Part shown: positions 1 to 16,519 of the stretch, one piece after another
Position numbering within the stretch: the first letter of the stretch is position 1
How the letters are laid out: each line of letters begins with the position of its first letter
From: a virus
Taxonomy: Duplodnaviria; Heunggongvirae; Uroviricota; Caudoviricetes
Strand: one strand, 5' to 3'
DNA: 16,519 nt
Virus record (IMG/VR): IMGVR_UViG_2579778660_000005
Translations under genes and position numbers: made by a program
Notes under the pieces: generated by a model
What the model saw: the letters and a program-made list of their open reading frames with translations, nothing else
What the model was told of the DNA's origin: nothing
Databases searched by the model: none

Positions 1-1284
1 TTACAGACTTCTGGAAGGTTGCGCAGCTCTTACAACACGCGGTTGATCTTCCGCAGCGTCTTCCAGCGCACTTAAATCACGGTCTTTCACCTCTGGCATT
101 TTCAGCGCAGAGATTAAACCAATTACTGAATATGCCATGATCATAATGGCGATCGGATACCAGGATTCCGTCATGGTGCAGAAAATCCCCGCCAGGATAG
201 GACCAAAACCGGAAGCGATAAGACCACCAATTTCTTTAGAAATAGCCATCCGGGTAAAGCGGTTTTTACAGCCGAACATTTCTGCCATGGTAATGTTTTC
301 CAGAGCAAATAATCCCAGCACCGCACAGTTATGAATCACAATCAGTGCAACCATAATGGTGCTCGGGGCATAGCTTTTATCTACAATGATAGAAAGCATT
401 GGCCATGCCAGCACAATCGCGGAGGTATTCATAATAATATACGGGATCCGGCGACCAATTTTATCGGATAACCAACCAAGGAACGGAATGGTCATAAAGC
501 CGAGAATCGAACTAATCATCAATGCATCTGTTGGAATTGCTTTGTTAAACAATAACGTCTGCACTAAATAGCCTGCAAGGAAAGTCTGAATTAACCCGGA
601 GTTACCCGCCTGACCAAAACGCAGCCCTGTTGCCAGCCAGAAGGATTTGCTCTGGAACATGCTACCAGCAGGTGCAGGTTTTGCTGTGGGTTGGTTGCTG
701 TCATTAACCTTCTCAAAGACCGGGCTTTCTTTCAGATTCATACGTAACCAGATAGCAAAGACCATCACGACAACGCTCGCCAGGAACGGTATACGCCATC
801 CCCACGCCAGCAGTTCCTCTTTACTGAGAATGAAGAACATAAAGGCCCAGATTGCCGTTGCGCTCAAGGTTCCGCAGTTAGTTCCCATAGCTACAAATGA
901 GGAGATAATTCCGCGCTTACCTTTTGGTGCATATTCCGCCAGCATCGTACCGGCACCGGAAATTTCCGCACCTGCACCCAACCCCTGAATAATACGCAGC
1001 GTCACCAGCAAGATGGGGGCAAAAACACCAATCTGTGCATAGGTCGGTAACACACCAATTAAGGTGGTACAGATCCCCATCATGGTGATGGTAATAAAGA
1101 GCACTTTTTTACGCCCTATTCTGTCGCCCATTTTGCCGAAAATAAATGCTCCGACAATACGCGCCACATAACCTGCACCGTAGGTTCCCATTGCCAAAAT
1201 TAACGCCATTGCCGTTGATGATTCAGGAAAAAATATTTCATGAAACACTAACGCTGCGCCGAGCGAATATAACTGGAAATCCAT
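1..1284 (-). CDS. ydfJ: MFS-type metabolite:H+ symporter (ProP/KgtP-like); N-terminus appears shortened
   Basis: 427-aa ORF with many hydrophobic helices and the MFS loop motif G-x-x-G-D-R-x-G-R-K-K starting near residue 50; aligns from memory with ProP starting at about ProP residue 25; an in-frame TGA lies two codons upstream of the ATG. Confidence 0.85.
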   Translation of the reverse strand: MDFQLYSLGAALVFHEIFFPESSTAMALILAMGTYGAGYVARIVGAFIFGKMGDRIGRKKVLFITITMMGICTTLIGVLPTYAQIGVFAPILLVTLRIIQGLGAGAEISGAGTMLAEYAPKGKRGIISSFVAMGTNCGTLSATAIWAFMFFILSKEELLAWGWRIPFLASVVVMVFAIWLRMNLKESPVFEKVNDSNQPTAKPAPAGSMFQSKSFWLATGLRFGQAGNSGLIQTFLAGYLVQTLLFNKAIPTDALMISSILGFMTIPFLGWLSDKIGRRIPYIIMNTSAIVLAWPMLSIIVDKSYAPSTIMVALIVIHNCAVLGLFALENITMAEMFGCKNRFTRMAISKEIGGLIASGFGPILAGIFCTMTESWYPIAIMIMAYSVIGLISALKMPEVKDRDLSALEDAAEDQPRVVRAAQPSRSL

Positions 1285-3306: not shown

Positions 3307-3882
3307 CTACGGCAGTGCTGGCCATTCAATATCCTGTGCAGTTGACGTATCAACACGGTTCAGCAATACCCGATACTTTTTCCATGCTTCCAGCAACGAG
3401 ATTTCTTCCTCCGTTGCAATTTCCAGATCTGCAGCATCCTGAAGCGGCGCAATATGCTCACTGGCTACCTGCATCAGGTTGTTTTTTGTTTCTTCCGCCT
3501 CCCGGATCCGGAACAGTTTTTCTGCTTCCGTATCCTTCACCCAGGCTGTGCCGTTCCACTTCTGAAACTCCCCTTCCGGCGATAACCAGGTAACATTTTC
3601 CGGTAACGGACCGAGTTCAGAAATAAATAACGCGTCCCCTGATGCCACGTCATAAACTGTTTTACCCCGATGGTCTTCAACAAGATGCCACGATGCCTCA
3701 TCACTGTTGAAAACAGCCACGAAGCCTGCCGGAATATCTGGCGGTGCAATATCGGTACTGTTTGCTGGCAGACCTGTATGAGGCGGAATATATGCGTCAC
3801 CTTCACCAATAAATTCATTAGTTCCGGCCAGCAGATTATAAATTTTTATGGTCTGTGGTTGTTCACTCATTCTGAATGCCAT
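3307..3882 (-). CDS. tfaQ: Tail fibre assembly protein (Tfa)
   Basis: 191 aa recalled as lambdoid Tfa; start ATG overlaps the stop of the upstream tail-fibre ORF (TAATG arrangement). Confidence 0.85.
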
Positions 3883-4796
3883 TATGCAAGCCTCACAATA
3901 TAGTTAAATGCGATGTTTTTGACGGTGTTTTCCGCGTTACCAGCAGCGTTAACGGTGATGGTGTGTCCATGTGAACCAATCGCAACGGAGTGCGTATGAG
4001 CACCAATACCGACAGTATGTGCGTGAGCACCTGCAGATGCAGCTGTGCCGCTGACACTATGAGTGTGCGCTCCTGCAGCACTTGTATTCACACTGGCCGC
4101 AGACACTACCTTATGTACTGACCCATTTTGTGACCACTGGCTGATTGCTGATGCGCCTGTGACACTATGAGTATGGTTTCCGGCACTTGCGGCTGTACCG
4201 CTCACACTGTGCGTATGCGCCCCGGTGTTATTCGTGGATTTAGTGCCGTAATCAAACGACGATGTGGTTTTCGTCCCCAAATCCGTACTGGATGCGCTGG
4301 CGCTGTGGGTGTGCGATTTAATGCCGTCCTGTTCCTGAGACAATACGGCCCGACCACTGGCAGGTTTGCCCTTAATCGTCCAGCCACGCATATCAGGGAT
4401 CACGCCTGACGGATAAGCGGCTGCAAGTTTCGGGTAAGCAGATTTGTCAAAAGTCTGCCCCTGCATCAGGGCATAACCAGACGGAACGGTATCTGATGGC
4501 CACGGGATTGGTGCACCGACTGGATAAAACTCTGCAGGAGGATGAGCCGAGGTGTAAAGCTGCGCCCACGGCGACCAGTTTGCGTCGGTCGTATCCCGTC
4601 GTGAACGAATAAATGCCGGAGCATGAGCACCGCTTGTACCACTCCAGCCGATGAGTAACTCACCTTCGCCAACGGCTGTCATCCCTTTCAGGTGAATGAT
4701 ATTTCCATACGCTGTTGGATATCCGTTGTTATACACCTCGTATAACTCAAGACCTGCTGCCCCCTGCGTATTGTCTGTCAGCGCGGCTAACCGCAC
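3882..4796 (-). CDS. stfQ: Side tail fibre protein, C-terminal receptor-binding fragment (GTG start at a deletion junction; N-terminal part missing)
   Basis: 304 aa rich in Gly/Ser/Thr with repeated [15 protein letters not shown] His-x-His motifs typical of tail-fibre tips; starts with GTG at 4796 directly after an in-frame TGA and overlapping the stop of the L fragment. Confidence 0.65.
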
Positions 4797-5338
4797 TCAT
4801 CACCGCGATAGGTCCAGGTGCAGGTGTTGGCCAGCATGATACGTCCCGGAAAAACAGCGCCGTCCGTTTCCGTCGGTGTGGACAACACAAAGGAGGCACT
4901 GACCGCACTCAGTTCGCTGCACTGCTCGATGCGCCAGCGGCTGATCACCTCCTGCTCCGGATCGGCGTCGCTGTTTCCGTTGACGAAGTTCACCGCATCC
5001 AGAAAACGGGCGTAAACCTTACGCCTGACCACCGTTCCGCCGACCAGACTCTGCAGGTCTTCCGCCATCCCGGTGACCATGCCGTGCAGGTTAGAAACCG
5101 TCAGTGTCGGACGGGCAGCACTGCCCTTGCCGTTCAGTTCAAATCCCGTCCCCTGAATGGGGTATGCCTGATACTGCCGCCCCTGCCAGGTAACCGGCTC
5201 ACCTTTTTCGTTCTGCTCATTACAGAAAAAATAACGTTCACCACCGACCTCTGTCAGATCGATTTCCCAGAGCACCACCTGGGCTGACTGAGTGAGGCGT
5301 GTCGTCTCATGATGTGTTTCCTGTGGAATATCCTGCAG
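4787..5338 (-). pseudogene. Tail tip protein L fragment (lambda gpL homolog lacking its ATG and about 50 C-terminal residues)
   Basis: Residues QDIPQETHH...VVLWEIDLTEVGGERYFFCNEQNEKGEPVTWQGRQYQ...[12 protein letters not shown] match remembered lambda L nearly residue for residue; CTG at 5336..5338 replaces the initiator; stop follows ECG. Confidence 0.8.
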
Positions 5339-5831
5339 CGCCCCTAAATTGCCGCGGGCCAGTTCACCTATCAGAACGCCTATCTCCTGGCGGGCTGCTG
5401 CACTTTTCAGACCCAGCGAATGCGTGGCTTTTCCTGCCTGCTCCATTTTGCGGATATACACTTCTGCAGCACTGCTTACCCCCAGCTGGGCTGCCTTAGC
5501 ACGAAGCAACTCAGAAGATGAAAGATTCAGGCGGGTTGACATCACTGGCCGGAATGAGTTGTGCCGTTTCCTGTTCGAACTTAAGACGCTCACGTTCAGA
5601 CTGATACCAGGCTTTGCGCTCATGCGCGTCCATTTCGCCTTCTGCAACCGGCGGTGGTAATGCCAGAAATGCCGACACAATATCAACCACCCGATAAAGC
5701 TTGAGGTTGCTTTCATGCCCCCCTGCAACGGGTAGATTTTGCAGCCTTGCCGCAGCAGTCTGGCGATGTACACCTGACAGTGCCGCCAGTTGACTGATAT
5801 TCAGCGTCAGATTTTTTAACTCTCGATCCAT
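5339..5831 (-). pseudogene. nohQ: Terminase small subunit, Nu1-like (NohA family), frameshifted near 5535 and continuing in frame into the L fragment
   Basis: 106-aa frame (5511..5831) resembles the lambda Nu1 N-terminus; a second frame open from about 5542 carries Nu1-like C-terminal similarity and runs without stop into L. Confidence 0.55.
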
Positions 5832-6002
5832 ACCCGCTCCAGAATGTTTTAAACATGCATCTTGCGAACAACTTTAGGCAAACGGTGTTAGTGATGAACA
5901 AAAAACAATCAAAATCGACACCATAAAAATAAAACCACTGTAATATCAATCTATTACAGTGGTGGTGATGACGAATGAAATTTCAAAAACTAGCCTTTTT
6001 CC

Positions 6003-6022
6003 GCGACGCTCCCGCCCCGTGG
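6003..6022 (-). other. cos-like site (cosN remnant)
   Basis: Minus-strand CACGGGGCGGGAGCGTCGCGGAAAAAGG resembles remembered lambda cosN ACGGGGCGGCGACCTCGCGGGTTTTCG; lies about 180 bp upstream of the Nu1-like start, as in lambda. Confidence 0.35.
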
Positions 6023-6383
6023 CAGGCCACCCCACCGGGAGGACCCGACAGCCTGACAACCGTGACGAGCATCTGAAACAGAGCTTTACATAATGGCATG
6101 GGGATAATTCAGAAGGACATCACAGCATGCCCACACAAATTAGTGTGAGTGTCCTGTTTCTTACTACGCGCAGGACTGACGAGCATGAGGGGAAAATACG
6201 AGAACCGAAATGCCTTATCTTCAGAAATGCAGCCAGCATCCGAACTGGACGATATTGTAAATTCACCTAAATACGAGGCATTGCTGTAGTTGAATTACAG
6301 TACTGTATTAGCCTGACAGTGACAGAATACGATATTGACTCTGTCACTTGTGAAATGGTCAGAATGGTTAGCAGTTATGGTGA

Positions 6384-6590
6384 TCAATCAACCACCAGGG
6401 AATAATCCTTCGTATTCTTATCGTGCTTCACTAACGCTGCCTCAATTGCCCTGAATGCTTCCAGAGATACTTGATGTTCTATACATGCAATTATAACATC
6501 CGGGTAACTCATCGAAATGGTGCTATTAAGCATAGTTTTTACACGAACCTGCTCCTGGGAGGGGGCCTCAGTACATTGATCTTTATGCAT
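6384..6590 (-). CDS. Hypothetical small protein (possibly YnfO-like); start uncertain
   Basis: 68-aa ORF divergent from ydfO across a 290-bp intergenic region; no recognised motif. Confidence 0.35.
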
Positions 6591-6775
6591 TTTATCGCTC
6601 CATGCGTTTGTTCTTCACTTGTCGCTAAAAATATAACTTCAAATCTTTGAGCGTGGAAGTGTGGAAGTCACTGCGCGTTGATCTTGCATACATCGGTCGT
6701 TTGTTTTCCCCCCTGGCATATCAGAAAAACCAGGTTTTATAGCGGAATCAATACTATGTATTTTCCACCTGACTT

Positions 6776-6805
6776 TTGACACAAATCATCAATAAAACAT
6801 ATAAA
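6776..6805 (+). promoter_or_regulatory. Candidate sigma70 promoter for ydfO (TTGACA, 18-nt spacer, TATAAA)
   Basis: -35 TTGACA at 6776..6781 and -10 TATAAA at 6800..6805, about 75 bp upstream of the ydfO start. Confidence 0.4.
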
Positions 6806-6878
6806 GGTCAGACCAGATTGAAACGATAAAAACGATCTTGCAAACTACGTGCCCTCATACCATATGGAAGGTTTATCT

Positions 6879-7289
6879 ATGGATCAGGTAGTCATTTTTA
6901 AACAAATATTTGATAAAGTTCGAAACGATTTAAACTATCAATGGTTTTATTCTGAGCTAAAACGTCACAATGTCTCACATTACATTTACTATTTAGCTAC
7001 AGATAATGTTCATATTGTATTAAAAAATGATAATACAGTGTTATTAAAGGGCCTAAAAAACATTGTGTCTGTCAAATTTTCAAAGGATAGGCATCTTATA
7101 GAAACGACCTCTAATAAGCTGAAATCCAGTGAGATCACATTTCAGGAATACAGAAGAAACCTTGCTAAAGCAGGAGTTTTTCGGTGGGTTACAAATATCC
7201 ACGAACAAAAAAGATATTACTATACCTTTGATAATTCATTACTCTTTACTGAAAACATACAGAGCACATCACAAATATTTCCACACTAA
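6879..7289 (+). CDS. ydfO: YdfO-like protein (DUF1398)
   Basis: ORF track starts at a GTG (6849); ATG at 6879 is preceded by GGAAGG at 6866..6871 and gives 136 aa starting MDQVVIFKQ, matching remembered YdfO. Confidence 0.75.
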
Positions 7290-7608
7290 ACCATAACGTC
7301 CGGTTTTTTCTACCCCAGCACCGGACTGGCTGACATAAAGAGCAACCCCACGTTAAGTTGACGCGTTAATAACCCGGTGTACATCGTTTTTGATTATTCC
7401 CCCACACTCGCGCAGAAGGAGTTCCCCGTCAGGCTACAGTCATAATTAATGCAGGAGCACAGCGACGATACAGCGCACAGAAACAAATCAGGCATCCATT
7501 AACTTCACACAAACGATGCATTGCATCGACAGGAGTAATGGCGTAAGTTGGATTCTTGGCGCTCTTTCGCCACCGGCGAATCTTCAGCGGATTATCCTTG
7601 GCCTGTTT

Positions 7609-8088
7609 TTATCTGAGGCATTGCTCACGAATGTATCGCTGTGCCCCCTCCAGTTGTTTTTGCATTATGATCAGTCTTTCTCTGAGGGAGAAATAATCCC
7701 GTTCAGCGGTGTCTGCCAGTCTGGGGGAGGTTGCATTATCCACGCCGGAGGCGATGGTGGCTTCACGCACAGACGGACAGATTGCTTTGATGTGCAACCG
7801 ACGACGACCAGCGGCAACATCATCACGCAGAGCATCATTTTCAGCTTTCGCATCAGCTAACTCCTTCAGGTATTTTGCATCGAGTGCAGCAACATCACGC
7901 TGGCGTATCTGCATGTCAGTAATGATTGCGGTCGCCTGGTTGAGTTTTTCCGACACATTATCGCGTTGCGCTTTGTAGGTAATGGCATTATCACGGTAAT
8001 GATTAACAGCCCATGACAGGCAGACGATGATGCAGATAACCAGAGCATAAATAATCGCGGCAACTCTGCTCACTGCTCTATCCCCCAA
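7609..8088 (-). CDS. rzpQ: Spanin inner-membrane subunit Rz (i-spanin)
   Basis: 159 aa; N-terminal TM helix [33 protein letters not shown] and coiled-coil region near-identical to remembered lambda Rz. Confidence 0.9.
7671..7853 (-). CDS. rzoQ: Spanin outer-membrane lipoprotein Rz1 (o-spanin), embedded in Rz in the +1 frame
   Basis: 60 aa with lipobox LVVVGC and proline-rich core [18 protein letters not shown], very close to remembered lambda Rz1. Confidence 0.85.
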
Positions 8089-8603
8089 CAGGCTAATGCG
8101 CTTTCCTGGTCACGACGAATAACCTGACCATAACAGTTATTTGAACGAATGCGGCAATCGCGCCCCCTGTCCTTAATCCACCAGCGAATCGCCTCGCAGG
8201 CACCTTTACGATCACCTGCATTCAGCCGTTTATAAAACGTCGACGGAAAACACTTACCGGGGCCAATGTTATAGGGACAAAATGACGCGATACCCGCTTT
8301 CTGGGGTTCGGTCAGCGGCACTTTAATATTGCGCTCCACCCATGCCAGCGCCTTATCGCGTTCAATGGCATTAACCTGAGCACATTTTTCCTTCGTCAGT
8401 TTCATGCCCGGAATAACAGATTTACCATCCACCATCGTGGCACCACGACAGATGGTCCATATGCCGGAACCATCGCGGTATGCCGTAGTGTGGTTACCCT
8501 CTTTTTCATCCAGAAACTGGTCAAGTATCTGTGGAGCTGATGCGCCTGCTCCAATCAGCGCCAGAGCTGCAGCTGACAGGCCGTATTTGATTTTTGCGTT
8601 CAT
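8070..8603 (-). CDS. rrrQ: SAR endolysin (phage-21 R-type lysozyme)
   Basis: 177 aa; weakly hydrophobic Gly/Ala-rich N-terminal signal-anchor-release helix [16 protein letters not shown], then E...D...T lysozyme motif region. Confidence 0.9.
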
Positions 8604-8658
8604 GGATATTTATCAGGATGCTACCAATGAAAGATACTGGAAAGCCAACCGCAAAAAG

Positions 8659-8973
8659 CTAACAACCCGTAATCGAGTTATCAGAACTGTTAATTTTTAT
8701 GGTATACCGCGCCTCTGAACAGGGGCGCGTTTCTGGCAACAGCTCGTCCCCTTCACATAACCCGGCAGCAACATCCAGGAAGACCTGTCTGATGCTCCTT
8801 CTGGCTGCTGCCTCATAAAACTCCAGCGCGGCACCTTCAACACGGACCAGCGAGATGTCCAGGTCAAAAATTTCACCGTCAAAGCGTTCTTTGTCCCGTA
8901 ACGCTAAAGTTACCGTAACTTTATTCTCAAAATTGCGGATCCCTTTCACAATCAGTTCATATTTTTGAGTCAT
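8659..8973 (-). CDS. ydfR: YdfR-like protein (DUF1327) inside the lysis cassette
   Basis: 104-aa ORF between holin and endolysin genes, the same position as ydfR in Qin-type prophages. Confidence 0.65.
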   Translation of the reverse strand: MTQKYELIVKGIRNFENKVTVTLALRDKERFDGEIFDLDISLVRVEGAALEFYEAAARRSIRQVFLDVAAGLCEGDELLPETRPCSEARYTIKINSSDNSITGC

Positions 8974-8977
8974 TGAA

Positions 8978-9193
8978 TTACTCTCCCCGTGCAGCCTTAC
9001 GCTTGTCTTCTTTAATCTTGAAATAAAGGTTTGTCAGGTACGTCAGCAGGCCAAATACCAGGCTACCCAGCACACCTATTGCTGCCCACTGTGAGGGCGT
9101 GACTTTATCGAGCAGCTGTAAAAACCAGTAGCCAGCACTGCCTGCGGAGGTGCCGTAGGCAATGCCTGTTGAAATTTTGTCCATGGATTTCAT
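8978..9193 (-). CDS. essQ: Pinholin, S21-like class II holin with dual-start motif (71 aa)
   Basis: Sequence [26 protein letters not shown]...[13 protein letters not shown] matches remembered S21; two in-frame ATGs at 9193 and 9184 (minus) preceded by GGAGGTGA; the 90-aa track ORF is an unsupported upstream extension. Confidence 0.88.
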
Positions 9194-9295
9194 AGCCTCA
9201 CCTCCGCACGGAACGGATGGCATAGTTATTATGTGTAGGCTTCCAGACACATCAATCAGAGCCTTAATTGATATATATGCTGGAGACGATGCAAT

Positions 9296-9319
9296 ATAAA
9301 AAGCTCGCCGTAGCGAGCT
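9296..9319 (-). terminator. Rho-independent terminator (minus strand) between lipoprotein gene and holin
   Basis: Minus-strand AGCTCGC-TACG-GCGAGCT stem-loop followed by TTTTT. Confidence 0.55.
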
Positions 9320-9444
9320 AATAAAATGTATTTCTCTGATATTATGTTTATTTGTATTAGCTCAGACTTGACATCACAGGTTTCGTATATAGAACATCAT
9401 CAAATCTGTCAGTTTGCTATGAATGAGATATAGTAATTGAAGAG

Positions 9445-9840
9445 CTAACCTCGCATGTCAAAGCCAGATTTCTGAAAATCTCTGTAGACTTCCGGATTGT
9501 TGAAGGCCGGAAATTTGGCTTTATGAGCTGCGGACTTTATCGCTTCGCAATAGGCTTTATCACCGTTACTGGTAGATATTTTTAACGCCGTGCCATCCTG
9601 AGAGAATTCCATATGCAACCTGCATTTTTTCCCTTTCCAGTTATGCGGCTCATCAAGTTTGGCATTAATTGCAGCTCTGATTCCCCGCGCTTGCGCCCCC
9701 CATTCATCCTGATCATCCCAGCGTCCTGAACTGCAACTACCTGTAGCAGTAGTTTTGTGGCAATCTGAAGGGTGTAAAGGTGTGCATCCCGCAACAAAAC
9801 CGACCCAAAAAGTCAACATAACGATTTTCTTTAATCCCAC
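9445..9840 (-). CDS. Lipoprotein with diverged TolA domain III-like C-terminal domain (paralog 1)
   Basis: 131 aa; GTG start preceded by GGAG; signal peptide with lipobox VAGC; C-terminal part aligns with paralog 2 and with remembered TolA domain III. Confidence 0.75.
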   Translation of the reverse strand: MGLKKIVMLTFWVGFVAGCTPLHPSDCHKTTATGSCSSGRWDDQDEWGAQARGIRAAINAKLDEPHNWKGKKCRLHMEFSQDGTALKISTSNGDKAYCEAIKSAAHKAKFPAFNNPEVYRDFQKSGFDMRG

Positions 9841-9990
9841 TTCTTGCTCCTCAATCCATTAAAATCTCAGCAATAGTAGTTGTTACGTCCGCCACTGGCT
9901 CAGAGCTGACTATCCGCTAAATTTAGCTCAGTGCCGTAGTTGTGTCAGAACAAACCTAAGCCGAAACCGTTTATTACAAAACAATAAATA

Positions 9991-10419
9991 TCAGGGTTTA
10001 AAATCCAGCACCCCATTTTGAAATACTTTATATACTTCCGGCGAAGGGGGGGCAGGTATATCAGCATTCTTTATCGCATTCATCGCTTCACGACATAAAT
10101 CGAGGTCTCCACTTTCTCTTTTAACCTCCAGTAGAAGGCCATTCGGGGCCATATGCATTCTCAGTGTACACTCTTTTCCTGAATACTTACTCGCATCCCC
10201 GAACTGTTTTTCGATGGCGCTCTTGATTTGATGGGCATACAGACGGATATCCTCACTAACATCAGAAGTACGTTCAGATGAACTCACATACTGTGTCTCT
10301 ATTGCTTTATCGGAGTAATATGATGTACGGTCATGATAATTTGTCGATACAGCATCAGTGCACCCGATAATAATCCCACTAATAATCAACGTAAGAATTG
10401 ATGCGCTACGAAAACCCAT
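9991..10419 (-). CDS. Lipoprotein with TolA domain III-like C-terminal domain (paralog 2)
   Basis: 142 aa; ATG preceded by GAGG; lipobox IIGC; C-terminal 86 aa (YAHQIKSAIEKQF...GKECTLRMHMAPNGLLLEVK...IPAPPSPEVYKVFQNGVLDFKP) about 60 percent identical by eye to the remembered E. coli TolA C-terminus. Confidence 0.8.
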   Translation of the reverse strand: MGFRSASILTLIISGIIIGCTDAVSTNYHDRTSYYSDKAIETQYVSSSERTSDVSEDIRLYAHQIKSAIEKQFGDASKYSGKECTLRMHMAPNGLLLEVKRESGDLDLCREAMNAIKNADIPAPPSPEVYKVFQNGVLDFKP

Positions 10420-10448
10420 TTTTCCTCACATATGTCATATAGTAAAGG

Positions 10449-10454
10449 ATTATA
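10449..10454 (-). promoter_or_regulatory. Candidate -10 element (TATAAT) for the lipoprotein genes
   Basis: Perfect TATAAT on the minus strand about 30 bp upstream of the paralog-2 start; -35 is weak. Confidence 0.3.
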
Positions 10455-10952
10455 TATACCGTTGTTTTGGACGCTCAAACAGCGAATCAGATCAAATAAA
10501 ACGCACATTTGTTAACATTTACACAAAGTCTGCGTGGGATATTCTGAAAGAATATCCATAATGTGGAGAGAATCTATTGAAGTGCATGGTGCCGGGTGCC
10601 TCCCGGTGAATTCAGTACCAGCACCTGAATCCGCGATTATCCCATATACCTACTCGCTGATTGCCCCTCCGCACAGGGGGATTCACCATGCCAGTTTCTT
10701 TTAACAAACTCCCCGCAAACCAGAGAACAGTCAACCGCCTGAATTGTGAAGTATTTAAAAATTTCTCCCGCTAACTGATACCCGGCTAACAGTCTGGCGT
10801 TTTCTTTTTCAGCAACGGGAAAGCAACAACCACCACACCCGCCACCAGCACACCGTCAGCCAGCACTGACATTATCCGGCTGCTGCAATGCCATTCACAA
10901 AAACAGTAAGCAATCACTTTTTACCGTAACAGGTGATAATCCAGATATGTAT

Positions 10953-11306
10953 CTACCCCAGATGAGTAATCCGAAGTTCATCCATACCACAGGTCCTGGC
11001 TATTCTGTTGTACTCCTGAACAAGAGCAAATAATTCTGAATTAGCAACCATGAACTCATCGCAAACCCTCTGTATAGCATCACTATTCAGAATAATAACG
11101 TCTCTTCCCGAAAGACGATCAGGAGCACAGAACAAAACTGTCAAACGGCTGAAGGCCTTTGCTCGTGCTGCATTGACTATATCAATACGCTGCCTAAGGA
11201 TGAAACACCCCGACGCCTCATCAATATTCACTCTACCCACACCATATGAATGATAAATATTTAATGCTGAAAAAACCATTAGACCGTATAACAAACACTC
11301 AATCAA
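10953..11306 (-). CDS. Hypothetical protein (117 aa, TTG start; possible cargo gene)
   Basis: Long ORF in an AT-rich stretch, same orientation as the late operon, directly downstream of the tRNAs; no recognised motif; start codon uncertain. Confidence 0.35.
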   Translation of the reverse strand: MIECLLYGLMVFSALNIYHSYGVGRVNIDEASGCFILRQRIDIVNAARAKAFSRLTVLFCAPDRLSGRDVIILNSDAIQRVCDEFMVANSELFALVQEYNRIARTCGMDELRITHLG

Positions 11307-11416
11307 TACTTAACAGAACTTTTATTTTTGACAAACATATAATATTTTCAACAATATCCTGAGCCAGGTATATTCCAGTATAAGGCTCTGCCGGAAGGAA
11401 TCTGGAAGAATGAATA

Positions 11417-11493
11417 TGGCGCGCTGTACTGGATTCGAACCAGTGACCGATTGCTTAGAAGGCAATTGCTCTGTCCGGCTGAGCTAACAACGC
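11417..11493 (-). tRNA. argO: tRNA-Arg (anticodon UCU)
   Basis: 77-nt cloverleaf folded by hand: acceptor GCGUUGU/ACAGCGC, D-stem GCUC/GAGC, anticodon stem AUUGC/GCAAU with loop CUUCUAA, T-arm ACUGG-UUCGAAU-CCAGU, 3' CCA. Confidence 0.9.
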
Positions 11494-11597
11494 TGAATAC
11501 CGATAATGGACCGCCATCGGGGACCCGCCCCCCCCCGCACCAACAACCCTGTTATCGTGTCGTCTGCTCTTCCTGATAAGCTCATGGCGGTTTGTGA

Positions 11598-11673
11598 TGG
11601 TGGCCCTTGCTGGATTTGAACCAGCGACCTGGCGATTATGAGTCGCTCGCTCTCACCACTGAGCTAAAGGACC
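11598..11673 (-). tRNA. ileZ: tRNA with CAU anticodon (Ile2-like or Met)
   Basis: 76-nt cloverleaf: acceptor GGUCCUU/AAGGGCC, D-stem GCUC/GAGC, anticodon loop CUCAUAA, T-arm GCUGG-UUCAAAU-CCAGC, 3' CCA; one mismatch at the top of the anticodon stem. Confidence 0.8.
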
Positions 11674-11712
11674 GGGAGCAGAATAATAACGGTCCGTAAT
11701 TAATTCCGCAAT

Positions 11713-11736
11713 AAAAAACCCGCTCGGTGGCGGGTT
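11713..11736 (-). terminator. Rho-independent terminator downstream of Q (tR'-like)
   Basis: Minus-strand AACCCGC-CACCGA-GCGGGTT stem-loop followed by a U-tract. Confidence 0.6.
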
Positions 11737-11783
11737 GTAGAAACTCTTCTAACGTCAGGCATAAAACGCCCATCTTTATGACG

Positions 11784-11811
11784 AATTTACCACAGATTCC
11801 GGAAAAATCAA
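11784..11811 (-). promoter_or_regulatory. Late promoter pR'-like (-35 TTGATT, 16-nt spacer, -10 TAAATT)
   Basis: Lies immediately after the Q stop codon; remembered lambda pR' is TTGACT/TAAATT in the same position relative to Q. Confidence 0.5.
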
Positions 11812-11816
11812 CCTTG

Positions 11817-12638
11817 TTACCTAGTTACCTTTTTTAACTGCCGCTCAGCCCATGCTTCTTCAATATCAAACCGGGTCACCAGCGCATCATAGAATTTCTT
11901 AACTGTTTTTTCCCATGACGCGCGTGTTATCTGGTTTGTCACCTCGCATATAGCATTAAATGCCTCCGTTGATGGTAGTCTTTCATAGCCCCGACCACCA
12001 CAACGCTGGCAGTCTCTGATAACAGGCATACCACGTTTTACCGACTCTTCACGGTGAATGGCGACACCACGCCCACGGCAATCCTTACAGGCGGTGGAAA
12101 CCTCACCCTTTCCGCCACACTCCGGACAGGCAACTTTTACCACCTCCCTGACTTTTTTCCATTCTTCCCAGTAAGACGGATACACACCTTTCGTACACTT
12201 TGCCCATACCGGCGGCTTACCATCCGGATACTGGACCTTGTTTGTAAAAACTACGCTTTCAATAAATTTTTCCCCATAGCAACAAGGGCACTGCTTTTTA
12301 CTCGCTGCGCTGCGGGCATAATCCTCAAAAGCGTACGAAGCCATAATGCGCATCACTAACGGTTTTATTTCTGCCGGAAGTTTTCTCAACGCCGCCACAC
12401 GATCGCACCGACTGAGTGCATAATCTGCCAGTAATTCTGTTGCCCGCGCCCTGTCATTCATACTGATGCCCATTTTCCCCAGGAACGCAGAAAATCCCAT
12501 CTCAGCCCGATTCTGTGTCATGCCCTGCGCGGCCATCACATCAGTGATACTCAGCGCATCTTTTGACGTTGAGGCCGATGCATCGGTCAGGCCAGGGGAT
12601 TTTGGGGAGTAGTATTTCGGTAAATCTTCCAGTTTCAT
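11817..12638 (-). CDS. quuQ: Late-gene antitermination protein Q (lambda Q family)
   Basis: 273 aa; shares with remembered lambda Q the blocks SPKSP...TDVMAA.GM, CxxC-GxG zinc motifs (CKDCRGRG, CQRCGGRGY) and TVK..YDALV. Confidence 0.9.
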   Translation of the reverse strand: MKLEDLPKYYSPKSPGLTDASASTSKDALSITDVMAAQGMTQNRAEMGFSAFLGKMGISMNDRARATELLADYALSRCDRVAALRKLPAEIKPLVMRIMASYAFEDYARSAASKKQCPCCYGEKFIESVVFTNKVQYPDGKPPVWAKCTKGVYPSYWEEWKKVREVVKVACPECGGKGEVSTACKDCRGRGVAIHREESVKRGMPVIRDCQRCGGRGYERLPSTEAFNAICEVTNQITRASWEKTVKKFYDALVTRFDIEEAWAERQLKKVTR

Positions 12639-13009
12639 TTTTTGACCTGCTCTTCATGCATTATGGGGTAAATCTTCACCCCCAGACGTCCACCAGATAC
12701 TGGCTGACCACGAACGATATTGATTTCATCAAACTGCTCATCGTCCATTAACACTCCCGCATGCGTCAGCGCATCCAGCGGTGCTTTCAGGATATTGTCC
12801 AGGTCGCGACGACGCTTATCCGGTGGCTCTGCAATCACCTTTATCGCCAGCCTTCCGGACAGGCTTAATTTCAGCCGCTGCTGGCGAACAATAAGCGCCA
12901 CAGCCCGGCGATAACGCTTTCCCTCCTCCGAGATAAAATATGTGCTGCCACGGCGTCGCCAGTAAGTGTTCACCGTCGGCGGGTAAGGTAAAACCAAATC
13001 TATGAGCAT
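12635..13009 (-). CDS. rusA: Holliday junction resolvase RusA
   Basis: 124 aa with RusA-like blocks LPYPPTVNTYWRR and DKRRRDLDN..K...DALT; ATGA overlap with the Q start. Confidence 0.85.
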   Translation of the reverse strand: MLIDLVLPYPPTVNTYWRRRGSTYFISEEGKRYRRAVALIVRQQRLKLSLSGRLAIKVIAEPPDKRRRDLDNILKAPLDALTHAGVLMDDEQFDEINIVRGQPVSGGRLGVKIYPIMHEEQVKK

Positions 13010-13021
13010 CAGTCACCTCTT

Positions 13022-14026
13022 TTACCCAAGCACGCCAGTTGCAAAGGCGTGATCAAGAAAACGAAAAATTAAATCAACCTGAGAACCATGCTTTTCTTCG
13101 AACGCCAGAGGATCCGCATGAAACTCGTTGTGATGCTCCCGACACAGCGGTAGCGTGAAAATATCGTGAGATTTTGTCCCCATTCCGCCCTGACCATGAC
13201 CAATCAGGTGATGGGGATCGTCGGCTGGCTTACCACAACACGCACACGGCTGTGTCTTCACCCAGCGTGTGTATTTCTCGTTAACCCAGCGGCGACGTTT
13301 AGGTCGTTTCATGAAAGATTCCGGAGACTCAGGATCAACGGCAATGCTGACCACCGTCTTTTCCTGTGGTGGGTTCTGTTGCTGGTGGGCGTGAGGCAGC
13401 GGCGCAAGATTTTTTGTGCGCTGTTTCAGTATGCTGGTGGCGGTCTGCTCTCCCGGTACGATGTCGCTTTCACGGTACATTGAGCGGATTTTTTCCGCAC
13501 GCAACCCCAGCGAACCACGTAATACCGCTTCCGGTAGCGCGTCCGCCACCTGATTGCGGACCGCCCACCAGGATAATTCAGCCAAAGATAATTCACGCTC
13601 CTGCGTACCGCTTATTGCGTGACCGATGACGTCAATCATCCATGCTGACAGGTTTTGATGAGCAAGTTGCTCGAGTGATTCGGATGTCTGGTCACGCAGC
13701 TGGTTGTCGCAGTGCCAGCACAACACCATTGCGCCGGTACCATAACGGTGAATGACGGTTTCGCTGTGATGATAATCGCCGTGTGGCCACTGGCAGGATT
13801 TAATATGGCGCAACAGCCAGTCAGACAATGCACCAGCACCACCAGCAGCACGAATTACCCGTGCGTTACTGAAAAACGGCAGCAATGTTTTGTCTTCCAC
13901 CAGCGGCTGGCGAACGGCAGGAACGACCCCGGACGGCAGATTACGCATGCTTTTCGGTTCCGGCTCCACCAGTACCCGGGTATTGTGGAATACCGGCATG
14001 GATTCACGGCCCGGCTTAACGACCAC
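13022..14026 (-). CDS. ydfU: DUF968 protein with C-terminal HNH-like Cys/His motif (YdfU-like); start uncertain
   Basis: 334 aa; C-terminal CACCGKPADDPHHLIGHGQGGMGTKSHD...CREHHNEFH; track start is GTG, an ATG lies at 13999. Confidence 0.7.
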   Translation of the reverse strand: MVVKPGRESMPVFHNTRVLVEPEPKSMRNLPSGVVPAVRQPLVEDKTLLPFFSNARVIRAAGGAGALSDWLLRHIKSCQWPHGDYHHSETVIHRYGTGAMVLCWHCDNQLRDQTSESLEQLAHQNLSAWMIDVIGHAISGTQERELSLAELSWWAVRNQVADALPEAVLRGSLGLRAEKIRSMYRESDIVPGEQTATSILKQRTKNLAPLPHAHQQQNPPQEKTVVSIAVDPESPESFMKRPKRRRWVNEKYTRWVKTQPCACCGKPADDPHHLIGHGQGGMGTKSHDIFTLPLCREHHNEFHADPLAFEEKHGSQVDLIFRFLDHAFATGVLG

Positions 14027-14321
14027 CAGCCCGAGTTCCGGTAGCCTCCATAATTGCAGGCACTAGCGCCGTGAACTTTTCACGCTTATCCCTGGTGTCG
14101 ATAGCCTTCCAGCGTTCGAATATCTTCACTCGATTAACGCCAAGCGCTCGCTGATCAACCGCGCCACCTTCATCTGTGACACGCTGAACATCGATGTTCG
14201 GGCGCTCTTTCAAAGCCCAGAATGCTTCAGTGATTAATATCGTCGCCTGCTCCTGTGTCATTCCTGGTCGACATATCCAGGCATCCAGAGCCTCACGAGC
14301 CTGTTCAGGAGTGATTTTCAT
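14016..14321 (-). CDS. Hypothetical phage protein (101 aa; possibly YdfX-like)
   Basis: ORF overlapping both neighbours in a compact operon downstream of the Cro-like gene; no recognised motif. Confidence 0.45.
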   Translation of the reverse strand: MKITPEQAREALDAWICRPGMTQEQATILITEAFWALKERPNIDVQRVTDEGGAVDQRALGVNRVKIFERWKAIDTRDKREKFTALVPAIMEATGTRAGGR

Positions 14322-14532
14322 TGTTCAACCGCCCCGCCCGCTTCGTCTTACGATATTCGTCATAAACCTTGGGATCATACAGAAGCTCGCCGCCAGATGC
14401 CTCCTGTAGACGCATCGCGCGACCTTCAGGAACCAGCTCTTGCCATTGAGAAACAGCAGATGGGTCAACGCCAGCAGCTTTCGCTACTTTGGCTTTCGTA
14501 CCGTAAAAATTAATTACGTCTGATTTAAACAT
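14305..14532 (-). CDS. dicC: Cro-like HTH regulator (DicC-like), 75 aa
   Basis: HTH-like segment GTKAKVAKAAGVDPSAVSQW; start taken at the internal ATG 14532 preceded by GGAGG; divergent from the repressor gene. Confidence 0.75.
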   Translation of the reverse strand: MFKSDVINFYGTKAKVAKAAGVDPSAVSQWQELVPEGRAMRLQEASGGELLYDPKVYDEYRKTKRAGRLNNENHS

Positions 14533-14545
14533 CGCACCTCCAGTA

Positions 14546-14559
14546 TTGAGTTTTCTCAA
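14546..14559. promoter_or_regulatory. Candidate DicA operator (TTGAGTTTTCTCAA) in the dicC-dicA divergent region
   Basis: Imperfect inverted repeat whose 10-mer AGTTTTCTCA recurs twice downstream of dicA. Confidence 0.45.
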
Positions 14560-14609
14560 TGCTAATCACTCAAGGAATCTCAAGTCAAGGGTTATTAAGA
14601 TATCTAAAT

Positions 14610-15017
14610 ATGAACGAGAAAACTTTAGGTCAACGCATTAGAGAAAGACGTAAGCAGGTAGGTTTAAGTCAAAACGGTTTAAGCAAAGCTGCTGGCGTAT
14701 CTGGCTCATCAATTTCATTATGGGAAAGTGACCATACAGCCCCGCGCGGGCAAAATTTGCATCGCCTCGCCGAGGTATTGCAATGTTCACCAACCTGGAT
14801 ACTGTTTGGCGACGAGGACAAAACACCAGCTCCCCCTGTTTCACTCGATAGTGCCTTAGACTTATCGGAAGATGAGTTAGAGATGCTGCGTTTGTATCGC
14901 GCACTTCCTAAATCAGAGCAACAAGCACAACTCAGCGAACTCCGCGCCCGCGTTGAGAATTTTAATCGCCTGTTCACCGAGCTATTAGAGGCTCGCAAAC
15001 GCAACAAGCATCAATAA
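14610..15017 (+). CDS. dicA: XRE-family HTH repressor (DicA-like), 135 aa
   Basis: Contains LQCSPTWILFGDEDK and a C-terminal region matching remembered DicA; start at ATG 14610, the 152-aa track ORF is an upstream extension. Confidence 0.88.
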   Translation: MNEKTLGQRIRERRKQVGLSQNGLSKAAGVSGSSISLWESDHTAPRGQNLHRLAEVLQCSPTWILFGDEDKTPAPPVSLDSALDLSEDELEMLRLYRALPKSEQQAQLSELRARVENFNRLFTELLEARKRNKHQ

Positions 15018-15366: not shown

Positions 15367-15798
15367 ATGGATTTCGACACAATCATGGAAAAGGCTTACG
15401 AAGAATACTTCGAAGGCCTTGCCGAAGGCGAAGAAGCTCTCAGCTTCAGTGAGTTTAAACAGGCACTCAGAATAAGAATGTGCTCTCACAATGACGCGGA
15501 GCACAAATATGAGAAGCAAAATCAGACCGCAGAAAATTTTGTTCTGGAACCCGGAGAAACGCTTTTCAAAATTCCCGTTACGTGCCCCATTTGCGGTTTT
15601 ACATCAGAAGAACTTGACGACTCCTGTAACAATCAGGAAACAACCAAGTATGTCGAAGATGATACCGAGTGCGCACGAAGAACGATTATATCCACGAGTC
15701 CAAACTCCAGAACCAATAAATCTCACTTTGAGAGGGTGATTAACCCACTAGACTGGCCCCCTGAATCTCCAGACAACCAGTATCACTTAAATAAGTGA
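15367..15798 (+). CDS. YdfB/YdfC-like protein with CPICGF motif; 3' end replaced by IS2 sequence
   Basis: 143-aa ORF starting [17 protein letters not shown]; its last about 16 codons and stop lie inside the IS2 left end that begins at 15749. Confidence 0.55.
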
Positions 15799-15839
15799 TA
15801 GTCTTAATACTAGTTTTTAGACTAGTCATTGGAGAACAG

Positions 15840-16205
15840 ATGATTGATGTCTTAGGGCCGGAGAAACGCAGACGGCGTACCACACAGGAAAAGATCGCAA
15901 TTGTTCAGCAGAGCTTTGAACCGGGGATGACGGTCTCCCTCGTTGCCCGGCAACATGGTGTAGCAGCCAGCCAGTTATTTCTCTGGCGTAAGCAATACCA
16001 GGAAGGAAGTCTTACTGCTGTCGCCGCCGGAGAACAGGTTGTTCCTGCCTCTGAACTTGCTGCCGCCATGAAGCAGATTAAAGAACTCCAGCGCCTGCTC
16101 GGCAAGAAAACGATGGAAAATGAACTCCTCAAAGAAGCCGTTGAATATGGACGGGCAAAAAAGTGGATAGCGCACGCGCCCTTATTGCCCGGGGATGGGG
16201 AGTAA
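15840..16205 (+). CDS. insC: IS2 transposase OrfA (InsC)
   Basis: 121 aa [56 protein letters not shown]... matches remembered InsC. Confidence 0.92.
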
Positions 16206-16519
16206 GCTTAGTCAGCCGTTGTCTCCGGGTGTCGCGTGCGCAGTTGCACGTCATTCTCAGACGAACCGATGACTGGATGGATGGCCGCCGCAGTCGTCAC
16301 ACTGATGATACGGATGTGCTTCTCCGTATACACCATGTTATCGGAGAGCTGCCCACGTATGGTTATCGTCGGGTATGGGCGCTGCTTCGCAGACAGGCAG
16401 AACTTGATGGTATGCCTGCGATCAATGCCAAACGTGTTTACCGGATCATGCGCCAGAATGCGCTGTTGCTTGAGCGAAAACCTGCTGTACCGCCATCGAA
16501 ACGGGCACATACAGGCAGA
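16163..16519 (+). CDS. insD: IS2 transposase OrfB (InsD), 5' part only, in the -1 frame relative to insC
   Basis: Translation (V/M)[45 protein letters not shown]... matches remembered InsD; slippery heptamer A-AAA-AAG at 16157..16163. Confidence 0.85.

Follow-up and report, generated by a model that had tools for sequence, protein, structure and literature searches.

The minus strand of the analysed stretch of DNA (IMG/VR record IMGVR_UViG_2579778660_000005, 16,519 nt, referred to below as the window) carries at positions 7609–9193 an uninterrupted lambdoid lysis cassette of five genes, S, ydfR, R, Rz, and Rz1. Very probably this region is the lysis module within the late operon of a lambdoid prophage that is decaying at the Qin site of E. 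coli, and the survival of the cassette needs no special explanation: it is unremarkable because the head and tail deletions fall outside the cassette and the remnant is little diverged. Defective prophages of the Qin type are already known to carry such lysis genes, which are routinely annotated.

An uninterrupted cassette of five genes

The first-pass annotation had described a complete phage-21-type cassette with four intact open reading frames (ORFs). Completeness and intactness both hold. Re-translation revealed no frameshift or premature stop in any cassette ORF, and every one of them aligns full-length and gap-free to homologues at other loci and then ends in a stop codon. Their Pfam matches, with E-values of 3e-19 to 5e-50, are all far above the cutoffs, indicating that these are not chance ORFs. 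However, the number of genes is five, as ydfR between S and R had been overlooked, and the phage-21 label applies only to the holin (96% identity to EssD of DLP12), whereas the endolysin is of the RrrQ type and the spanin is lambda-like. The cassette is more precisely described as a mosaic of a 21-type holin, a Qin-type SAR (signal-anchor-release) endolysin, and a lambda-type spanin, with ydfR in addition.

Table 1. Features of the lysis cassette, its putative control elements, and the remnant morphogenesis block in the window.
Feature	Position	Strand	Details
Tail-fibre gene, 3′ part	3882-4796	minus	mapped onto fuller prophages L008 and L001
Tail gene L, N-terminal part	4788-5337	minus	mapped onto fuller prophages L008 and L001
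Tape-measure fragment	5338-5536	minus	mapped onto fuller prophages L008 and L001
Truncated DUF1441 small-terminase gene	5831..5511	minus	mapped onto fuller prophages L008 and L001
Rz, i-spanin	7609..8073	minus	154 aa; PF03245, 169 bits, E 5e-50; 86% identity to lambda Rz
Rz1, o-spanin lipoprotein	7671..7853	minus	60 aa; PF06085, 69 bits, E 2.9e-19
R, GH24 muramidase, RrrQ type	8070..8603	minus	177 aa; PF00959, 86 bits
Predicted signal-anchor-release segment	8523..8585	minus	R codons 7-27, 21 residues
ydfR-like gene (DUF1327)	8659..8973	minus	104 aa; PF07041, E 2.7e-38
S, S21-family pinholin/antiholin gene	8978..9193	minus	71 aa; PF04971 'P21 holin S', 122.2 bits versus cutoff 26, E 8.7e-36
Shine-Dalgarno GGAGGTGA	9198..9205	minus	4 nt upstream of S ATG1; kept in most related loci
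Intrinsic terminator-like hairpin	9302..9319	minus	AGCTCGCTACGGCGAGC then TTTTTAT; separates S from the TolA-like genes upstream
Candidate tR' terminator	11717..11736	minus	AACCCGCCACCGAGCGGGTT then TTTTATT; ~50 nt downstream of candidate pR'
Candidate late promoter pR'	11784..11811	minus	TTGATT, 16 nt, TGgTAAATT; directly past the Q stop; assigned by position and consensus
Q antiterminator gene, intact	11817..12638	minus	273 aa; PF03589, E 2.6e-55

The PF04971 match of S covers positions 1–63 of the 64 profile positions. A dual start with a strong ribosome-binding site had been noted for this gene, and both elements were recovered: M-K-S-M-D-K is encoded at 9193..9176 with GGAGGTGA upstream, so that Met1 is predicted to yield an antiholin form, carrying Lys2, and Met4 a holin form. 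The transmembrane domains (TMDs) are both uncharged. TMD1 (residues 7–28) is weakly hydrophobic with 55% G/A/S/T, and TMD2 (residues 31–58) bears the G40xxxS44xxxG48 zipper of the S21 literature. Exactly this S protein is found on at least 1000 contigs. An RNA structure at the S start resembling lambda sdi was rejected: the ribosome site does pair within a local hairpin, but this fold is no better than those of shuffled sequences (z −1.13).

Four nucleotides past the S stop codon begins ydfR, with GGGGAGAG located in the 3′-terminal part of S. In YdfR, conservation is confined to the N-terminal ~72 aa, followed by a variable C-terminal tail, and the omega of the gene is 0.29. An AlphaFold model of moderate confidence (pLDDT 69.5) comprises three strands and one helix, and a Foldseek comparison of this model with the PDB gave no fold match, the best hit (E 0.06, TM 0.34) not being meaningful. 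Pfam and PHROG list the function of YdfR as unknown, and PADLOC and NCBIfam returned no match. The gene is conserved within many lambdoid lysis cassettes.

The endolysin R is 93% identical to RrrQ of Qin and 33% identical, over 174 residues, to RrrD/R21, and matches the R21 structure 3hde with an E-value of 2e-16. By these identities R is not a close orthologue of R21, and a close relationship to R21/RrrD was not found. Its catalytic triad, E35-X8-D44-X5-T50, starts at residue 35 as in RrrD/R21. An SAR N terminus consists of two to three basic residues followed by ~20 uncharged ones, mostly Gly, Ala, Ser, or Thr (PMC9239132). In R, Lys4 and Lys6 precede the uncharged residues 7–27, 12 of which (57% of the 21) are G/A/S/T, in agreement with the SAR-type N terminus that had been predicted from the sequence. 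The mean Kyte-Doolittle hydropathy of this segment is 1.31, compared to 1.39 for the SAR segment of RrrD/R21 and 2.50 for the true TMD of Rz, and both the composition of the SAR segment and the catalytic triad correspond to RrrD/R21 at each position. R contains eight cysteines, none of them within the SAR segment. An A21-S22-A23 motif in the N terminus is followed by Pro24 at +1, which argues against cleavage of R as an ordinary signal peptide. The predicted SAR tethering and release of R has indirect support only, from the pairing with a pinholin, from the eight cysteines, which suit the periplasm, and from the proline after A-S-A. No obvious ribosome site precedes R; this was discarded as a defect because the same upstream sequence is kept in viable phages and in K-12.

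Rz starts at a GTG codon that overlaps the stop codon of R within GTGA. Such a start is no defect, since cassettes of this type, among them that of phage mEp460, normally have GTG within GTGA. The TMD of Rz spans residues 4–24, and its cysteines are Cys99 and Cys152. As the first-pass annotation had stated, Rz1 is embedded: it lies wholly inside Rz at an offset of 220 nt (1 mod 3), i.e., in the +1 frame. It has a VVGC lipobox with Cys20 and Thr at +2, a further cysteine (Cys29), and a proline-rich region. Identity to lambda Rz1 is 90–92%, and the differences are confined to tolerant positions, namely the 25–30 linker, P34, and residues 59–60. The P34S exchange within the penta-proline stretch was considered as an inactivating change and dismissed, as position 34 is the only substitution-tolerant proline in lambda and RzoD of DLP12 has Arg there.

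Because start codons, catalytic residues, cysteines, and mutation-sensitive spanin residues are all undamaged, the cassette is probably functional if it is transcribed, and transcription probably needs Q antitermination. At the level of sequence, the earlier functional reading of a pinholin, an SAR-type endolysin, and an embedded Rz/Rz1 pair, intact within a defective prophage, is borne out.

A Qin-site remnant and its late operon

The whole window is 100% identical to the E. coli contig JJMD01000062.1. The ydfJ ORF corresponds to window positions 1–1284, and the prophage is integrated adjoining ydfJ with a gene order that matches Qin. The left arm shows 98.9% identity to Qin of K-12, but the lysis genes just 86–90% at the nucleotide level. 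The prophage represents one allele of Qin, the well-known cryptic prophage found at ydfJ. The four further known copies of the remnant differ from the window by 1–2 SNPs each and are nearly clonal with it. The Qin left arm is present in 1419 of 5426 complete E. coli genomes, and in none of the complete RefSeq E. coli genomes does coverage reach 80%, either for the window or for the junction region.

The reported deletion of morphogenesis genes is confirmed, with fragments alone left at 3882..5831 (Table 1). The block was lost through at least two deletions, probably three, whose endpoints at 4788–4793 and about 5337–5537 lie between the small-terminase and tail-fibre genes, outside the cassette. 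Window positions 5537–14041 are colinear, at 98% identity, with a prophage retaining terminase, portal, and capsid genes, and the same cassette is found at 96.9% in a prophage of this kind. Two ideas on the breakpoints were rejected. A Pin recombinase crossover site behind a tail-fibre breakpoint common to K-12 lacks a suitable inverted repeat. An old terminase/tape-measure junction in common with strain 26561, which would have provided a diverged orthologous remnant, is contradicted by a differing junction within 100% identical flanks, indicating that the deletions in the window and in strain 26561 are independent.

The terminator-like hairpin upstream of S would block read-through into the cassette by any RNA polymerase that Q has not modified. 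A promoter-like site and a terminator of its own accompany the TolA-like gene pair upstream; a literature search on prophage TolA-domain lipoproteins found nothing. An internal S promoter, TTGATG-16-CATAAT (9255..9228), was discarded, as promoter-like matches in the region (12 versus 10.1 expected) are not above chance. For the repressor, only an HTH domain and no S24 peptidase match is recorded, and replication genes are absent, so that induction may be impossible.

We infer cassette expression, protein topology, timing, and lysis itself as follows. Derepression would lead to synthesis of Q and to modification of RNA polymerase at pR'. The Q-modified polymerase would then pass tR', two tRNA genes, and the TolA-like moron with its terminator, and continue into S-ydfR-R-Rz/Rz1. 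S would yield two products, an antiholin of 71 aa from Met1 with the extra Lys2 and a pinholin of 68 aa from Met4; exit of TMD1 from the membrane would be followed by oligomerization of TMD2 into small pinholes and by depolarisation of the inner membrane. YdfR may act as a soluble accessory protein that is translationally coupled to S. R would be exported by Sec, and the weakly hydrophobic anchor at its N terminus would keep it inactive until depolarisation frees it, allowing it to refold and to cleave peptidoglycan through E35/D44/T50. Rz in the inner and Rz1 in the outer membrane, linked beforehand across the periplasm, would then fuse both membranes.

Persistence of the lysis genes

Retention of the lysis genes amid the deleted morphogenesis block had been taken as a sign of selection to keep lysis, with dN/dS as the proposed check. 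This is not supported by our analysis. The ratio is indeed low, about 0.08 for S and R, but this value characterises the phage/prophage gene pool as a whole, from which it is inherited. The lineage-unique substitutions (9 non-synonymous to 6 synonymous; the copies of the remnant are clonal) are compatible with neutrality (P=0.15) and not with an omega of 0.1 (P=0.002). Recent decay or exchange with functional phages accounts for the intactness equally well.

In one alternative, which we consider unlikely, the cassette has been domesticated, i.e., the host keeps it since low-level or conditional expression helps, be it in peptidoglycan turnover, vesicles, biofilm, or altruistic autolysis. This has been proposed for DLP12 of K-12, whose essD-ybcS-rzpD/rzoD operon is reported to be conserved and transcribed and to influence vesiculation and biofilm (PMC7918800), and lysis genes of cryptic prophages are reported to be active enough to require repression (PMC9782134; PMC2408971), both of which speak for domestication. 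So does the annotation of S, R, and spanin as intact in all sampled Qin-site variants with differing junctions, a small sample without phylogenetic control that covers the left arm of K-12/BS-04, CFIAFB20180540, AZ147, NCTC9040, MS10495, and T16R and leaves room for host-level retention. The three are likewise annotated as intact in the prfC-site remnant of strain 26561, and no deletion in this remnant or in the sampled Qin-site variants extends beyond the small-terminase gene. As a sign of selection, retention of the cassette in other Qin-site remnants is suggestive only. However, about three quarters of the complete E. coli genomes are without the Qin left arm, so the module is not generally required, and the lineage-specific substitutions fit neutrality. 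The cassette also lies behind two terminators with upstream promoter matches at chance level, and the cassette alleles vary among remnants (DUF2514 spanin in K-12, lambda-type in the window), which favours phage exchange over vertical maintenance. It is rather improbable, in our estimate, that Qin-site remnants systematically keep a Q-dependent pinholin/SAR-endolysin/spanin module for host autolysis, vesicle release, or cell-wall turnover. If they did, independent deletions would never be allowed beyond the small-terminase gene, and the holin-coupled YdfR could be an uncharacterised accessory regulator of such lysis.

Possible, though doubtful, is a persistence of the cassette through hitch-hiking with possibly useful flanking accessory genes (the TolA-like lipoproteins and tRNAs upstream, ydfO downstream) or through repeated replacement from incoming functional lambdoid phages. 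The separate promoter-like site and terminator of the TolA-like pair would suit hitch-hiking. Replacement is suggested by the gap between the identities of left arm and lysis genes to K-12 Qin, by a mosaic boundary inside ydfR between the window and MS10495, and by the uneven distribution of nucleotide differences to the nearest relative (S 0/213, ydfR 3/312, R 17/531, Rz 26/462), but this mosaicism could be older than the integration. That the cassette is intact in frame yet functionally dead, by lineage missense changes or lost transcription, appears very unlikely. Changes unique to the lineage do occur in R (V13A, in the SAR segment, and P62S), YdfR (D43V), Rz (the five exchanges T41S, V98I, T107I, T129S, and Q146R), and Rz1 (P28L and P34S), and the HTH-only repressor and missing replication genes may bar induction. 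Nevertheless, none of the changes affects a catalytic residue, a cysteine, or a known mutation-sensitive position: residue 62 of R is naturally P, T, or S, residue 34 of Rz1 is P in lambda and R in DLP12 and tolerates Ala, and residues 100–115 of Rz are replaceable by a Gly-Ser linker. Moreover, Q and the candidate pR' and tR' are intact.

We thus retain the reading of a decaying lambdoid late operon. For DLP12, the retention or domestication of such cassettes is a published idea, and the lysis genes kept in independent Qin-site deletion variants could become a population-genomic test of prophage domestication.

Relation to known lysis cassettes

Qin of K-12, with its essQ-ydfR-rrrQ-rzpQ/rzoQ cassette, shares with the window the ydfJ-adjoining site, the S-YdfR-R arrangement, and the gene order from pinQ-tfaQ-stfQ' through the truncated terminase gene, ydfO, the lysis cassette, Q, and ydfU to the immunity region. 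Similarity of the encoded proteins is high for R (93% identity to RrrQ) and S (90%). In contrast, YdfR is just 65% identical and has another C-terminal tail, and the K-12 spanin is the DUF2514 pair RzpQ/RzoQ instead of the lambda type (PF03245/PF06085). K-12 Qin further carries the cold-shock morons cspB/F/I where the window has TolA-like lipoproteins and tRNAs, and its deletion junctions and junction partners are not the same.

With phage 21 and DLP12 the window has in common a holin of the same family with the same MKSMDK dual start, the predicted logic of a pinholin combined with a Sec-exported SAR endolysin, and the triad at E35/D44/T50. Differences are the size and cysteine content of the endolysin (165 aa and 4 Cys in RrrD/R21, 177 aa and 8 Cys in the window) and the absence of ydfR between S and R in phage 21/DLP12. 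The DLP12 spanin is 83%/93% identical to Rz/Rz1 of the window, and lambda is equally close (86%/92%). Lambda and the window share the embedded +1 architecture, the lipobox, Cys99 and Cys152 of Rz, and Cys29 of Rz1, and all Rz/Rz1 residues at which a missense change abolishes lysis are kept in the window. Unlike lambda, Rz of the window has an extra Leu153 before the C-terminal Arg, and its Rz1 reads PPSPP instead of PPPPP. The partners differ as well, with the S105 holin and a soluble transglycosylase R in lambda and a pinholin and an SAR endolysin in the window.

Three isolated phages, mEp460, Perceval, and PhiR49_2, also carry the S-YdfR-R-Rz cassette at ~92% nucleotide identity, with holin, YdfR, lysozyme, and Rz(/Rz1) arranged as in the window. 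In mEp460, amino-acid identity reaches 96% for S, 97% for YdfR, and 95% for R, and the GTGA overlap of R and Rz and the region upstream of R are the same as in the window, but Rz is a different allele (60% identity). In contrast to the remnant described here, these three are viable phages with full morphogenesis modules.

A remnant of the Qin site

The window is 100% identical to the E. coli draft contig JJMD01000062.1 (GCA_000627855.1); three further assemblies and an IMG/VR contig each depart from it by 1–2 SNPs. Beginning with ydfJ at its left end, the gene order (ydfJ, ydfK, pinQ, tfaQ, a truncated tail-fibre gene, a truncated small-terminase gene, ydfO, the lysis genes, Q, rusA, ydfU and the cro/repressor region) matches that of the K-12 cryptic prophage Qin, whose left arm is 98.9% identical. 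Junctions were mapped onto a fuller prophage at the same site in strain MS10495. The window's prophage has lost its terminase large subunit, portal, capsid and the majority of its tail genes, it lacks replication genes, and at the right end (15795–16519) an IS2 lies beside a 157-aa ORF, in agreement with the first-pass description of an otherwise crippled prophage. An Rfam IS009 match (221 bits; 3341–3539, minus) lies inside the tail-fibre assembly gene.

The tail-fibre-side deletion endpoint (4788–4802) is within ~9 nt of the stfQ endpoint of K-12 Qin (comparison locus L007, near 5854), whereas the partner differs, being tail gene L in the window and the lambda-Nu1-type nohA in K-12. A search for a Pin-type inverted repeat that would account for this endpoint gave none. 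In the prfC-site remnant of strain 26561 (L098, 11004–11640), the tape-measure and small-terminase sequences are 100% identical to window 5336–5935, but their junction differs; the two deletions are of independent origin in near-identical parent phages.

Features of the window
Feature	Position	Strand	Remarks
Tail-fibre gene/tail gene L junction	4788-4793		6 nt overlap
Tail gene L	up to its start at 5337
Tape-measure fragment	5338-5536		200 nt
DUF1441 small-terminase gene	from 5537		first ~98 codons
Rz	8073..7609	minus	154 aa from GTG start; PF03245, 5e-50
Rz1	7853..7671	minus	60 aa, inside Rz, +1 frame (offset 220 nt); PF06085, 2.9e-19
R	8603..8070	minus	177 aa; PF00959 (phage lysozyme), 3.1e-24
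ydfR-like	8973..8659	minus	104 aa; PF07041 (DUF1327), 2.7e-38
S	9193..8978	minus	71 aa; PF04971 (phage 21 holin S), 8.7e-36
Two tandem TolA-like lipoprotein genes	9445-10478	minus	only TolA C-terminal (domain III) fold
STnc100 sRNA-family match	10530-10720	minus	Rfam, 114 bits (gathering score 47)
tRNA-Arg(UCU)	11417-11493	minus	just downstream of candidate pR'/tR'
tRNA, anticodon CAU	11598-11673	minus	just downstream of candidate pR'/tR'
Candidate tR' terminator	11736..11717	minus	strong, ~50 nt downstream of candidate pR'
Candidate pR'	11811..11784	minus	TTGATT-16-TGgTAAATT, good promoter match directly past Q
Q gene	12638..11817	minus	intact
Immunity region	14559-15017; 14016-14559	plus; minus	repressor, P22-Cro-like gene, YdaT-like gene

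The lysis genes and their control

The minus strand of 9193–7609 carries five consecutive or overlapping ORFs, all of them far exceeding the curated Pfam cutoffs. The first-pass annotation was right in its coordinates, in its four lysis features and in their functional annotation, and overlooked only the fifth gene, ydfR, which starts 4 nt past the S stop. Its claim of intact frames also holds, as homologues of each lysis ORF from 80 IMG/VR loci and a number of E. coli genomes align with it over its full length and without gaps, and each ORF then reaches a stop codon. Three candidate defects were examined and rejected. The GTG start of Rz overlaps the R stop as GTGA in almost every cassette copy, including phage mEp460; the region upstream of R, which has no obvious ribosome site, is conserved in viable phages and K-12; and the PPSPP of Rz1 (PPPPP in lambda) departs at position 34, the stretch's one substitution-tolerant proline in lambda, where RzoD of the defective prophage DLP12 carries Arg. 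Comparison with the lambda Rz/Rz1 mutant table (PMC5295617) showed that all Rz and Rz1 residues whose missense change abolishes lambda lysis are conserved. Conserved cysteines are C99 and C152 in Rz and C20 and C29 in Rz1. The six differences from lambda Rz1 (positions 2, 27, 28, 34, 59 and 60) fall, except for position 2, at experimentally tolerant positions.

By the sequence criteria given in PMC9239132, R has a predicted SAR-endolysin N-terminus. It starts with MNAKIK, followed by 21 uncharged residues (7–27), 12 of them Gly, Ala or Ser, with a mean hydropathy of 1.31, compared with 1.39 and 62% in the SAR segment of RrrD/R21; the genuine transmembrane helix of Rz, in contrast, has 2.50 and 24%. 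The E-X8-D-X5-T triad starts at residue 35, as in RrrD/R21. Indirect support for SAR behaviour comes from the pinholin partner, through which a folded enzyme cannot pass, from eight cysteines that all lie outside the anchor segment, and from a Pro next to the A-S-A motif (21–23), which would disfavour signal-peptidase cleavage.

The YdfR (DUF1327) family is narrow (259 proteins from Escherichia, Shigella and Salmonella); its members share a core of ~72 aa and have very variable tails, with an omega of 0.29; no structural match to its predicted fold of three strands and a helix was found. The gene (8659–8973, minus) lies within the lysis cassette, with translational coupling to the holin, and is probably dispensable, because strain T16R has a truncated copy alongside an intact S, R and spanin. 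A hairpin at 8659–8684 (minus; 11 pairs, 4 G-C, then CTTTTTG) covers the final ydfR codons and sits in the 55-nt gap ahead of R, where it might dampen expression of R or be a chance structure.

Q, the candidate promoter and the candidate terminator appear to form a classic pR'/tR' layout. Downstream of tR' follow the tRNAs, the STnc100 match, the TolA-like pair with its terminator, and S. The CAU-anticodon tRNA is annotated as tRNA-Ile in relatives; in Rz, 5 of 17 Arg residues use the rare AGA codon. The weak promoter-like match immediately ahead of S does not exceed chance expectation. Given this layout and the terminator before S, the cassette probably depends on Q-mediated read-through.

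The STnc100 match is flanked by a DUF3927-region ORF and the first TolA-like gene. The TolA-like pair (142 aa, lipobox IIGC, PF06519 2.4e-23; 131 aa, VAGC, 1.3e-14) encodes predicted outer-membrane lipoproteins in the Q-to-S accessory slot and has its own promoter-like site, TTGAGC-18-TATAAT (10478..10449), and terminator (9319..9302). These proteins might be TolA decoys that exclude colicins or filamentous phages, or might interfere with Tol-Pal; PADLOC returned no hit, PHROG 5772 has no assigned function and a literature search gave no paper. The immunity region abuts ydfU directly, with no replication genes between, and its 152-aa repressor has an HTH only, with no S24 peptidase hit on record. 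Because of this repressor and the missing replication genes, lambda-style SOS induction of the remnant is improbable.

Selection on lysis

Selection to keep lysis, as initially suggested, is not borne out by dN/dS. Across ~90 loci, S has pairwise values of 0.08–0.10, R of 0.08 and the conserved portion of YdfR of 0.29, and those between window and relatives are similar; they reflect purifying selection acting on the phage/prophage gene pool rather than on this remnant. Substitutions exclusive to the window lineage (none in S, 2 N/0 S in YdfR, 2 N/2 S in R, 5 N/4 S in Rz) total 9 N:6 S. This ratio fits neutrality (P=0.15) as well as an omega of 0.3–0.5, whereas an omega of 0.1 is at odds with it (P=0.002). 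The tips, if anything, give an impression of relaxed constraint, a pattern that recent mutations show under any model. Known copies of the remnant are almost clonal and the identical junctions were found in no complete RefSeq E. coli genome, so that a selection test has no diverged orthologous remnant to draw on. Divergence from the closest relative is uneven (S 0%, ydfR 1%, R 3.2%, Rz 5.6%), with a mosaic boundary within ydfR; both point to recombination with other lambdoid elements. Bobay et al. 2014 reportedly found defective prophages as a group to be under purifying selection.

The Qin left arm occurs in 1419 of 5426 complete genomes. Qin-site prophages were picked by this arm alone, hence blind to lysis genes, and variants with differing internal deletions were examined: K-12 and BS-04 (terminase small subunit fused to tail fibre), CFIAFB20180540 (capsid protease fused to tail fibre), AZ147 (truncated large terminase fused to tfaQ), NCTC9040 (truncated portal), MS10495 (tail genes deleted) and T16R (IS3 rearrangement). 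S, R and the spanin are annotated as intact in every variant sampled, the one truncated gene being ydfR, in T16R. The 26561 remnant, with its independent terminase/tape-measure deletion, has an intact DLP12-type cassette. This small and phylogenetically non-independent sample is compatible with lysis-gene retention; however, the larger a deletion, the less often it is to be expected in any case, and selection could be acting on the flanking accessory genes themselves. The evolutionary inference is neither supported nor contradicted by these data.

Relation to known cassettes

A lysis cassette is a known kind of feature in a known kind of place. For DLP12, cassette retention and possible domestication have been described, the cassette affecting vesiculation, biofilm and turnover of the cell wall (PMC7918800); cryptic-prophage lysis genes have been reported to be toxic and to be controlled by the host (PMC9782134, PMC2408971), and Qin variability among strains has been surveyed (PMC6379469). 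The label phage-21-type fits the holin, 96% identical to DLP12 EssD, but not the endolysin, which is 33% identical to RrrD/R21 (DLP12 RrrD and the R21 crystal-structure sequence differ at two aligned residues) and 93% identical to Qin RrrQ. The Rz/Rz1 pair is 86%/92% identical to that of lambda and 83%/93% to that of DLP12, and the 21/DLP12 cassette lacks the YdfR present here. Since these affinities differ, the cassette is a mosaic, best labelled Qin/mEp460-type with a lambda-type spanin. The isolated phages mEp460, Perceval, PhiR49_2 and others share this five-gene arrangement at ~92% nucleotide identity; in strain BKQWHE, a prophage retaining terminase, portal and capsid genes has it at 96.9%.
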